Position numbers and translations under genes: made by a program. Shown one piece after another: positions 38,315-39,904 of a stretch of 64,000 nt of DNA. The DNA comes from Patescibacteria group bacterium. Lineage in GTDB: Bacteria > Patescibacteriota > Patescibacteriia > 2-12-FULL-60-25. The stretch's first letter is position 1, and the number at the start of each line of letters is the position of its first letter. The notes below the pieces were generated by a model, which was not told the origin of the DNA, made no database searches, and saw only the letters and a list, made by a program, of their open reading frames with translations. Location: positions 16,482 through 80,481 of the forward strand of contig JAKLEH010000001.1 in assembly GCA_022703155.1 (NCBI GenBank), written 5' to 3'.

Positions 38315-39904
38315 ATGGCAAAGAAAGCTTGCTGCATCCCCGCGAACAAGAAGGCCGAGCAGCTTGGCATGGGCACGTTCGCCAAGTACGCGGTCCGCAA
38401 CCTCAACCCCATGGCCGAGGATTACGACTTCTGGTCGCCGCCTCGCCCCGTGCGCTACCACACGACATACCAGCCGGCCAACATCTGCGGTCTCGTGATC
38501 CCCAACGATCTGATCAGCGTGGTCACGAGCAACGTCCTGCATACGCACGAAGGCAGCACGTCCAACGTCCTGACCAGCGATCTGGACTACTGGACGCGTC
38601 CCATGAACTGCCACGTGTGTGCCGACCACGACCGCAACGCCAACCGCATCTGCGTGGTCTGCACCACGGACGACGTCAAGGTCCTGGAACAGACCGTGGA
38701 CTTCGACGGCGTCTACCACGTCATTGGCCGGCTCCCCGAAGCCGACGGACAGGGCCGCGACGAAACGCGCATCCGGACGCTGCTGGCGCACATCGGATCC
38801 TGCCCGCAGGAAGCGGAAGTGATTCTGGCGCTCGGCAGCGACGAGAAGGGCGCGACCGCCGCGACCTACCTCACCGGCCTGTTGGCCGGCGAGAACGGGC
38901 CGTTGCCCAAGGCGATCAAAGTCACGACTCTCGAACACGTACGGCAAGGCGACGCCGAATTCGTGGAGGACGGCAAGGCGGCGTGCGCGATTTGCGGCAT
39001 CCAAACCCCGACGGTGGAGCGCTTCGTCGACCCCAACAGCGCCCGCATCGCCTGGTGCGCGGATACGCGCCTCGAGGTGCTCGTCCACGAGAGATTCTAC
39101 GTGCCGTGCGCCGATTTCGACGCCTGGTGCGAGAACTTCAACGATCCGCCCAGCCAGGGTCTGCACCAGGATATCCTGGACATGGTCCGCAACGGTTTCG
39201 TGGACGTGTACGAAACTCCGTACACGCACACGGGATACCTGCCGGACCAGAAGGGTTGGACCAGCAAGTGGACGGACAACGTGGAACGCATCTTCCGCGA
39301 CATGCGGACCAACCGCCTGTCCGAAGACATGCAGAGCTTCAAGCCCTACCCGAGGGCGCTGCGCAGCTTCCAGGGCTTCTGCGGGTTCCGCGATCCGCTG
39401 AACCGCAACAACCCGGGACGCCTTACCTGGTTCTTCTTCGGCCAACTGCCGAGCCGCGAGGACATGGAACGCAAGAGCGGCCGCCGTGGCTGGATCGTGT
39501 TCATGCAGGTCGGCAACTTGCAGGCCATGTGCGCGACCTATATGGCCGAACTGGTCGACGGCACGTTCGACGAGTTCTTCCAGCGCCACGGGCTGATCAT
39601 TCCGGACGAATGCTTCGTGCGGGACGACCGCGAGGCCAAGAAACGCCTGCACCGTAAAAGCCGGAAGGACGCGGCCGACAAGCCCGCGGACAAGCCCGAG
39701 GTCGGCGCGCCTGAGGCTCAGGCCAAGCCCGATGAGCCTCAGGTTGACGACGGCGCGTCAGTTTCCGCCGATGGCGAAGACGTCGCGCCCGAACCGGCCC
39801 GTGAGCCCTTGAGCTACGACAACTTGTTCGGCGGTTCGCCTAACGATGCCGGTGGGGATGCGCAAACCGCATCCGACGTTCCTTCTGACACCCCCACCAA
39901 CTGA
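38315..39904 (+). CDS. RecR-like Zn-finger/Toprim module fused to a ~260-aa unknown domain and an acidic low-complexity tail (529 aa)
   Basis: SD GGAG lies 7 nt upstream. Residues 99-190 (nt 38609-38884) read CHVCADHDRNANRICVVCTTDDVKVLEQTVDFDGVYHVIGRLPEADGQGRDETRIRTLLAHIGSCPQEAEVILALGSDEKGATAATYLTGLL. This follows the RecR pattern C-x2-C..C-x2-C, ICVVE..D..AIE.T..F.G.Y.VL.G..SPLDGIGP.D..I..L......EVILATN...EGEATA.Y. Confidence 0.8.
   Translation: MAKKACCIPANKKAEQLGMGTFAKYAVRNLNPMAEDYDFWSPPRPVRYHTTYQPANICGLVIPNDLISVVTSNVLHTHEGSTSNVLTSDLDYWTRPMNCHVCADHDRNANRICVVCTTDDVKVLEQTVDFDGVYHVIGRLPEADGQGRDETRIRTLLAHIGSCPQEAEVILALGSDEKGATAATYLTGLLAGENGPLPKAIKVTTLEHVRQGDAEFVEDGKAACAICGIQTPTVERFVDPNSARIAWCADTRLEVLVHERFYVPCADFDAWCENFNDPPSQGLHQDILDMVRNGFVDVYETPYTHTGYLPDQKGWTSKWTDNVERIFRDMRTNRLSEDMQSFKPYPRALRSFQGFCGFRDPLNRNNPGRLTWFFFGQLPSREDMERKSGRRGWIVFMQVGNLQAMCATYMAELVDGTFDEFFQRHGLIIPDECFVRDDREAKKRLHRKSRKDAADKPADKPEVGAPEAQAKPDEPQVDDGASVSADGEDVAPEPAREPLSYDNLFGGSPNDAGGDAQTASDVPSDTPTN

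Follow-up and report, generated by a model that had tools for sequence, protein, structure and literature searches.

Sequence comparison points to capture of a RecR Toprim fragment by an orphan Patescibacteria protein with a conserved leader RNA

The canonical recR gene is single-copy, encodes a protein of about 200 aa and commonly adjoins ybaB/dnaX. To our knowledge RecR is almost always of a single architecture, and we know of no RecR-type Toprim domain that is catalytic. Each part of RecR has an assigned role: the helix-hairpin-helix (HhH) domain mediates DNA binding and N-N dimerisation, the zinc finger is structural, the Toprim domain is where RecO and RecF bind, and the C-terminus forms the ring (PMC3510498). 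We analysed a 64-kb stretch of contig JAKLEH010000001.1 from a Patescibacteria group bacterium (hereafter the window), in which the gene at 38315..39904 (+) encodes a 529-aa protein that carries an internal part of RecR. Compared with RecR (TIGR00615; 1VDD, 3VDP, 4JCV, 8A93), this target protein has the Toprim domain with the second zinc knuckle before it and the first C-terminal strand after it, but lacks the HhH domain, the first knuckle and apparently most of the C-terminal tetramerisation region; its RecR-like module is embedded in an otherwise unrelated protein, and the gene is not next to ybaB/dnaX. The best overall explanation is that a RecR fragment was captured by an orphan scaffold protein, in which it would form a module with a function other than that of RecR, under control of a leader RNA. 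We give this composite reading about an even chance.

The target gene is an orphan scaffold reading frame with an inserted RecR fragment. Its extent and ATG start agree exactly with the open reading frame (ORF) that an earlier, sequence-only reading had picked out (ORF list), and 38315..39904 is the true frame because full-length homologues occur in three independent assemblies. Two relatives, P0002 and P0003, are 55% and 46% identical to the target over their full length, and the gene sits at the equivalent position in three further assemblies. The motifs quoted in that reading are all present, namely CHVC (aa 99-102), a 10-residue spacer, CVVC (aa 113-116), LEQT, FDGVYHVIG, DGQGRDETRIRTLL, EVILALG and EKGATAATYL, as are CAICGIQTPTVERFVDPNSARIAWC (aa 224-248) and a tail containing LSYDNLFGGSPNDAGGD. 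Three shadow ORFs at 32225-36067 (+, 1280 aa), 38194-39657 (+, 487 aa) and 38282-39652 (−, 456 aa) lie antisense or out of frame to rpoB and the target gene; these are high-GC artefacts and not genes.

The RecR/Toprim homology proposed for the core was confirmed by Pfam, NCBIfam, a PDB profile and Foldseek, and it covers aa ~97-206, equivalent to RecR residues ~61/67-170. Pfam Toprim_4 (PF13662) matched aa 111-191 (E=1.8e-10, 41.3 bits against a gathering cutoff of 25), and the NCBIfam recR model TIGR00615 matched aa 96-191 to its positions 66-161 of 196 (E=4.9e-17). The latter match scored 62 bits against a cutoff of 162.55, in agreement with the earlier view that the protein is not a canonical RecR. 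Solved RecR structures were recovered from the PDB by sequence, at E=2.6e-12 with the single sequence and at E=4.5e-20 with a three-sequence profile whose match spans the RecR second zinc knuckle through 'VKVTRIAHG'. Foldseek comparison of the AlphaFold 2 (AF2) model returned only RecR chains for this region (probability 1.0, ~120 aligned columns, 32-38% identity).

The clade-specific insert as a whole comprises aa 97-240 (38603..39034, +), that is, the RecR module and a new CxxC segment, and corresponds to gaps in the alignments of all 13 more distant relatives of the target. At its start, CHVC (38609..38620, +) takes the place of knuckle two in the alignment with the RecR Cys4 finger, where the sequence reads CDVC in D. 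radiodurans RecR and CDIC in T. tengcongensis RecR. The first knuckle has no counterpart, the ~15 residues upstream of CHVC being free of cysteine; by alignment, only half of the canonical Cys4 finger is present. The proposal that CHVC-x10-CVVC forms the RecR finger does not hold, CHVC being the second knuckle and C113 the ordinary Cys of 'ICVV'. Nor does C116 replace a universally conserved acid: CVVC (38651-38662, +) occupies the place of ICVVE/ICVVS in RecR, with Glu in D. radiodurans RecR and Ser in T. tengcongensis RecR. The Toprim domain (aa 111-191; 38645..38887, +) was assigned from Toprim_4, AF2 secondary structure and Foldseek. AF2 predicts an alternation of strands (112-116, 133-136, 168-174, 200-206) and helices (121-128, 149-162, 177-191), in which the beta1 acidic position is C116 and D176-E177 follows beta3. 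Further on, the strand IKVTTLEHV matches RecR VKVTRIAHG, after which the alignment fades and is weak to aa ~231; the rest of the RecR C-terminal tetramerisation region appears to be replaced by the CxxC segment. The latter contributes CAIC (aa 224-227; 38984..38995, +), a new CxxC(G) knuckle close to where the insert ends, and W247-C248 comes after this C224-x2-C227-G knuckle. No RecR counterpart of the CAIC segment exists beyond 'HG' in the PDB profile alignment, and AF2 puts CAIC at a beta-hairpin turn (strands 221-223 and 230-232) with low confidence. CHVC, D176-E177, CAIC and W247-C248 are invariant in the three insert-bearing proteins.

The sequence on either side of the insert belongs to a family of its own. 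A word-indexed search covering 5.8 billion clusters found P0002 and P0003 as the only other full-length relatives, and a profile of aa 215-460 searched exhaustively against 1.84 billion representatives with a hidden Markov model (HMM) found 14 proteins, the target and P0004-P0016 (265-597 aa). All 13 of these relatives are unannotated, and none of the ten that were scanned has a Pfam match; the two named at NCBI, MFZ6015687.1 (Patescibacteria group bacterium) and MBD3281259.1 (Candidatus Uhrbacteria bacterium), are both hypothetical proteins. When the word-indexed database was searched with profiles, in two runs, hardly anything besides the three known proteins came back, low-complexity tails having probably swamped the prefilter. 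The RecR-bearing fusion is therein confined to one sub-clade (3 proteins in 5.8e9 clusters), and no description of a RecR fragment inside an orphan protein was found in the literature, which bears out the expectation of a rare, undescribed architecture.

P0004-P0016 share with the target the N-terminal ~96 aa, the C-domain, a segment rich in K/R and an acidic tail that contains an aromatic motif. The scaffold N-domain (aa 1-96; 38315..38602, +) has the pattern KA..LG.G..AKYAVRN..D..PP.. ..SN.L.., and the C-domain (aa 241-438; 39035..39628, +), delimited by the exhaustive HMM search and AF2, contains the motifs GLH.D.L, R.F.GF.G, FFGQ, RGWIVF and DGTF..F..R.GLIIP..CF..DD. A basic segment follows (aa 439-462; 39629..39700, +), with 10 K/R in 24 aa; the tail likewise starts K/R-rich in most relatives. 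The acidic Pro/Ala-rich tail proper (aa 463-529; 39701..39901, +) has 15 D/E versus 2 K/R in 67 aa. The acidic tail noted earlier is present; together with the basic stretch that comes first it measures 91 aa. Within it, the aromatic motif LSYDNLFG (aa 499-506; 39809-39832, +) recurs across the family as LAYESTFG, LSYEATFG, GGFGSFE, VEFGEFS and LSFGKFG, the tail being otherwise poorly conserved (17-28% identity).

With three close homologues alone, AF2 modelled the target at a predicted local distance difference test score (pLDDT) of 33.9; a 17-row alignment was needed, and with it the mean pLDDT rose to 75.4 and the predicted TM-score (pTM) was 0.64, the C-domain being mostly at 85-96 and the N-domain at ~86 in most blocks. 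Neither PDB nor BFVD held a credible fold match for the scaffold, including the C-terminal region for which an AlphaFold and Foldseek check had been suggested; Foldseek matches other than RecR had E>0.03 and TM ~0.1-0.2. The family profile had no PDB sequence match, and the N-domain matched nothing in Pfam, NCBIfam, PDB or Foldseek. No catalytic residue pattern is suggested in the scaffold, whose near-invariant positions are Gly, Ser, Ala and Asn. The scaffold is thus predicted by the model to fold confidently and has no known relatives in the libraries searched. It represents a very small, unannotated protein family of a narrow Patescibacteria (Candidate Phyla Radiation, CPR) lineage, and the target displays all of the family traits: both domains, the basic-then-acidic tail, a leader RNA (see below) and convergence with rodZ-like/ftsK.

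As the N- and C-domains are common to insert-less relatives, the RecR fragment would have been inserted into the orphan protein and not the reverse. What had been called a 'novel N-terminus' and a 'long C-terminal domain' is, by these alignments, apparently the original protein, and the RecR core the newcomer. The idea of a repurposed RecR paralog stands in that a non-canonical, RecR-derived part is present; it fails in picturing a RecR that gained new ends, given that P0004-P0016 lack the RecR piece. The order of events can be followed across loci where the orphan gene is convergent with rodZ-like/ftsK (L001, L003/L004, L005/L006 with P0016, and L007 with P0005). We used FtsK and RodZ-like identity between loci as a proxy for species relationships, which is not a rooted phylogeny. 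For FtsK, identity is ~84% within the group of window, L001 and L004, and falls to ~75% for L007 and ~69-70% for L005, and the RodZ-like protein gives the same order. The insert is present only in the crown clade (window, L001, L004), with sister L007 and outgroup L005 lacking it, so that one gain is more parsimonious than two losses. The hinge between the domains carries unrelated insertions elsewhere in the family (acidic repeats in P0006, helical inserts in P0004/P0010), and a second insertion hot-spot lies inside the N-domain, with ~75-100-aa inserts in P0008, P0012, P0015 and P0016. Taken together, the comparisons show a lineage-specific orphan protein that has apparently captured a fragment of RecR.

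Among the insert-bearing proteins, the insert is 40-57% identical versus 52-67% for the scaffold domains, and all six insert cysteines are invariant. A further six, in the scaffold (Cys 6, 58, 248, 356, 406 and 433), do not vary within the crown clade, and no relative has Cys at any of these positions. The joint appearance of the insert cysteines and these clade-specific scaffold cysteines suggests that module and scaffold are linked through metal sites. The level of identity, with all six insert cysteines intact, indicates that the insert has been maintained under constraint.

The target gene is preceded by a conserved RNA element. A promoter-like TTGACA-N17-TAAGGT (TG-extended; 38022..38050, +) is conserved in L001, L003/L004, L005 and L007. 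Downstream lies a structured 5' leader of ~145 nt with four helices (38077..38221, +), conserved and covarying in all loci, and then, beyond a CA-rich spacer, the Shine-Dalgarno sequence GAGGAG (38302-38307, +). Between loci whose orphan proteins have only 22-31% identity, RecA reaches 83% and FtsK 70-75%; therefore the orphan protein diverges several times faster than its neighbours. The leader is conserved even at the loci of these 22-31% identical relatives, far better than the protein, with core strings identical in L001, L004, L005 and L007 (AUGGAGGGGAAAGCG, CUCCGGC/GCUGGAC, UGGCUCG and UCGCCUCCA). RNAalifold on five sequences gave the four helices with 44 pairs, 11 of which show compensatory changes. 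In a pairing test that used a structure derived from the same sequences, 93% of cells were paired versus 28-45% with slid 3' partners, and 0/500 shuffles reached the observed value. A covariance model found exactly one strong copy per locus (100-150 bits), and the leader matched none of 4227 Rfam families even at E<=10; viral contigs do not contain its signature.

No terminator-like site was found between leader and ORF, and this, together with the CA-rich spacer and the Shine-Dalgarno sequence, leads us to read the leader as a 5' untranslated region, which is probably regulatory. A leader-encoded peptide (AUG GAG GGG AAA GCG) was considered and dropped: the distance from AUG to CUCCGGC is 39 nt in the window versus 22 nt in L005, so that the frame is not kept, and the helices covary. 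The autoregulatory leaders of ribosomal-protein and RNase genes, and riboswitches, offer an analogy. Like them, this leader is structured and covarying, has its own promoter, lies directly upstream of a single gene and shows stronger conservation than the coding sequence; it differs from the known examples in having no Rfam match and a single copy per locus.

These observations can be combined into a mechanism. An internal RecR fragment, reaching from the second knuckle to the first C-terminal strand and including the Toprim domain, would have entered the protein at the hinge that joins its two scaffold domains. This piece would end in the new CxxC knuckle, the same clade having gained the six invariant scaffold cysteines. 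The captured module would present a Toprim surface held by at least one Cys-ligated metal site, for oligomerisation or partner binding, with C99/C102, C113/C116, C224/C227 and C248 as possible ligands that perhaps form a bridge to the scaffold. To assign the module as a non-catalytic surface for interaction or oligomerisation, with Cys-metal sites stabilising it, is tentative and well short of an even chance.

The tail suggests a further element. RNA polymerase delta (RpoE of Firmicutes) and SSB combine a globular domain with a K/R tract and a long acidic tail bearing a short hydrophobic or aromatic motif. The target likewise runs from a globular part through a K/R tract into an acidic tail with an aromatic motif; unlike in these proteins, its globular parts have no sequence or fold similarity to delta or to the oligonucleotide/oligosaccharide-binding fold of SSB, and its motif is not at the extreme C-terminus as in SSB. 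With a basic tract followed by an acidic, mimic-like tail, the scaffold would be nucleic-acid-associated. It is possible by this analogy, if doubtful, that the scaffold binds nucleic acid and that its acidic tail is self-inhibitory or docks a partner. The leader would control expression in cis, through the protein itself or a ligand; feedback through the leader may be entertained with similar reserve.

Several points weigh against the composite reading. The putative metal sites are deduced from cysteine conservation only, and the nucleic-acid proposal from tail composition and an analogy with RNA polymerase delta and SSB. The apparent direction of change, gain and not loss, is drawn from a similarity proxy across five loci. 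Conservation is lower in the insert than in the scaffold, and the insert may be in partial decay, and its model is moderately confident (AF2 pLDDT 45-70), with the two outer knuckles below 50. Finally, the leader may be an independent small RNA rather than a cis-regulator.

Of the alternatives, the one that fares best keeps the Toprim domain at work in recombination. The captured Toprim would still dock RecO and/or RecF, making the protein an adaptor that brings these mediators to the scaffold's target near recA/ftsK. In TTERecR, RecO binds the hydrophobic patch of loop 106-121 together with the HhH domain, and its binding is abolished by deletion of residues 1-15 or helix alpha1 (PMC3510498). 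We mapped this loop to HGVISPIEGVGPEDIR, with D63, I112 and P117 agreeing with the numbering in PMC3510498; its equivalent is GRLPEADGQGRDETR in the window protein, GGLMDAEGQGADKTR in P0002 and GSI-DVDSL-ETKTG in P0003. The loop length and G..G spacing are kept in the window protein and P0002, the gene is two genes from recA, and the window also encodes SMC/RecN-like, GyrA, RuvC, FtsK, RecA and ComEC proteins. Against docking, the RecO wedge loop of the insert is polar and variable, its hydrophobic residues are gone and P0003 does not conserve it, and both the HhH domain and the N-N dimer that RecO binding needs in TTERecR are absent. The proximity to recA belongs to a long syntenic block also found in insert-less relatives and has nothing specific to the insert. 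Given the absent HhH domain, the half finger and a loop that is polar and variable, the sequence makes it unlikely that the protein has canonical RecR activity or docks RecO in the canonical way, and the adaptor role as a whole is unlikely as well.

A different history would reverse the direction of change. An ancestral fusion of RecR with the C-terminal domain could have lost its zinc/Toprim part in most members, leaving the N-terminal helices as a decayed HhH. The family tree is unrooted, and AF2 shows two short helices joined by LGMG (aa 10-25) that are loosely HhH-like. The second Gly of this 'GhG' is not conserved in the relatives (LGLLD, NGLDY, MGLDD), and profile searches of aa 1-96 matched neither RecR nor HhH, even at E<=10, which upholds the earlier statement that the HhH motif is absent and led us to reject an HhH relic in the N-domain. 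The RecR piece moreover begins mid-finger, as fits fragment capture, and the hinge is a general hot-spot for unrelated insertions; at least two losses would be required versus one gain on the FtsK/RodZ proxy tree. We regard this history as quite improbable, and capture of a RecR fragment by the scaffold remains the preferred account.

It is very unlikely that the protein is the lineage's only housekeeping RecR, decorated with extra domains. Such a role would agree with the lack of any canonical recR or other RecR-like ORF in the window, the fetched loci and the contig end (~64-78 kb); dnaX and ybaB are likewise absent from the window. It is opposed by the recR equivalog cutoff, missed by 100 bits, by the absence of the HhH domain and half of the finger, and by relatives with 70-75% identical FtsK that have the scaffold without the RecR part and must therefore obtain RecR function elsewhere or do without; the ORF search itself extended over only ~64-78 kb of the genome.

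Equally remote is an active metal-dependent Toprim nuclease acting as a defence or toxin effector like OLD, Gabija or PARIS, which would explain the very fast divergence relative to the neighbours and finds D176-E177 retained at the end of beta3, but which is opposed by the Cys at the beta1 acidic position, by the non-catalytic RecR proteins (32-38% identity) as the closest relatives of the module, by the absence of any PADLOC or PHROGs match, by the fixed chromosomal position without mobile-element hallmarks, and by the lack of a Toprim in most family members. With the Toprim defence nucleases (OLD, Gabija GajA, PARIS AriB, Wadjet JetD) the target shares a Toprim within a larger, fast-evolving multidomain protein; it differs in having no ATPase partner or domain, a RecR-like Toprim with Cys for the beta1 acid, and a fixed locus outside a defence island. 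PADLOC gave no match at E<=1 for the target, two relatives and three neighbouring ORFs, and a defence-system or phage origin was rejected on the absence of PADLOC and PHROGs matches.

The chromosomal surroundings of the captured fragment are as follows. In the window, which is part of contig Ga0116241_10000669 of JGI metagenome 3300010429, a series of minus-strand genes (SMC/RecN-like, FtsJ, DHH, GyrA, RuvC, YebC, rpoC and rpoB) is followed by a plus-strand block containing the target and then, again on the minus strand, by rodZ-like (HTH_25), ftsK, recA, M23-like and comEC. L004 (GTDB genome contig CAZRYH010000006.1) carries essentially P0003. It is labelled 'uncultured Gammaproteobacteria bacterium'; its FtsK is 83-84% identical to that of the window and the named members of the family are Patescibacteria/Uhrbacteria, and the label is probably wrong. 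In L007, a reverse-transcriptase gene (RVT_1; 7919-8974, −) comes right after ftsK, in the place that recA has elsewhere, and in L005 ISL3 and rve transposases with a bacteriorhodopsin-family gene (3897-9618) replace the upstream block of RNA and small ORFs. Outside the syntenic genes, the window holds a low-GC island at 50000-56000 (GC 0.33-0.39 versus ~0.55-0.62 around it) with genes for a methyltransferase, a polysaccharide deacetylase, a DUF2268 protease-like protein and unannotated ORFs, which was probably acquired horizontally. A complete MmeI-family type IIL restriction-modification enzyme of 928 aa (N, helicase-spacer, methyltransferase, target recognition and C domains) is encoded at 57977-60763 (−). 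The whole 64 kb contains no tRNA gene and no Rfam family at the gathering threshold, and Pfam matched neither the four ORFs of 208-263 aa at 597-4526 nor one at 12830-13615.

Upstream of the target, the plus-strand block contains two small orphan genes. A 209-aa ORF (36281-36910, +) lies right after rpoB on the opposite strand and is 45-48% conserved in L001 and L004; neither L005 nor L007 yielded a counterpart, and Pfam, PADLOC and PHROGs gave no match. A very basic ORF of ~66 aa (37656-37856, +, within the listed ORF 37566..37856; containing KVRKPLPPATQRHRNKTKYRRKPKHPGGEDES) is 49-56% conserved in L001, L004 and L007, its only family matches being two weak PHROG matches to low-complexity basic stretches. 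It sits between the leader and a large conserved non-coding element of ~470-560 nt, found at 37096-37598 (+) in the window and at 7985-8516 in L001, 8624-9123 in L004 and 1024-1620 in L007. The large RNA has a near-consensus promoter, TTGACA-N17-TATATT (37096-37124), and a terminator-like hairpin (37574-37590). RNAalifold on the four sequences folds it into two domains with 143 pairs, 19 of them compensatory, joined by a linker that is variable and bears a hairpin. Upstream of the 209-aa ORF, at ~36173-36217, the large-RNA profile matches weakly with its first ~45 positions, the promoter region. The large RNA has no Rfam, tRNA or tmRNA match; in L005, where insertion sequence elements have inserted, it does not occur within 10 kb of the gene. 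Its GAGGACAGUCC motif recalls P4 of RNase P, an identity that was rejected as the RNase P, tmRNA, 6S and SRP models gave no match at E<=10. On the idea that the leader might mimic a domain of the large RNA, comparison of the two gave matches of only 18-22 bits, at non-homologous positions.

A candidate small RNA of ~190 nt (40339-40562, +) lies between the target and the rodZ-like gene. Its TTGACA promoter (40339-40366) is conserved in all five loci, and its closing helix CUGCG(A/G)AACG / CGUUUCGCAG is replaced by the compensatory CUGCGAAGCG / CGCUUCGCAG in L005 and L007. The RNA contains an invariant CUCUCUCCUCCCAUGG and ends in a hairpin and T-run terminator (~40536-40562), and it has no Rfam match. 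The 11-nt CUCUCUCCUCC within it is exactly complementary to GGAGGAGAGAG of the large RNA upstream.

A more speculative extension treats the plus-strand block between rpoB and the rodZ-like gene as a lineage-specific ribonucleoprotein or regulatory module with the scaffold as its RNA-binding core. It would bring together three promoter-driven structured RNAs (the ~470-nt two-domain RNA, the 145-nt leader and the ~190-nt hairpin RNA) and the orphan proteins, namely the 209-aa protein, the ~66-aa basic protein and the scaffold, and the leader would mimic the scaffold's RNA target for feedback control. We consider its prospects slim. If it were true, capture of the RecR Toprim would couple such a ribonucleoprotein to the DNA-repair or chromosome-handling machinery via the new Cys-metal sites.

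What can be recognised in the target is a known fold in a new setting, and the libraries searched contain no known relative of either the scaffold or the RNAs. A RecR fragment inside an unrelated protein would represent a rare and cleanly datable capture in which donor fold, acceptor hinge and clade can all be identified, in a protein from organisms that cannot be cultured. The insert could show what a RecR Toprim does without its HhH domain. The combination of a fast protein with a nearly fixed leader RNA points to regulation or RNA binding, and the three candidate structured RNAs, absent from Rfam, provide concrete targets for the RNA biology of Patescibacteria.

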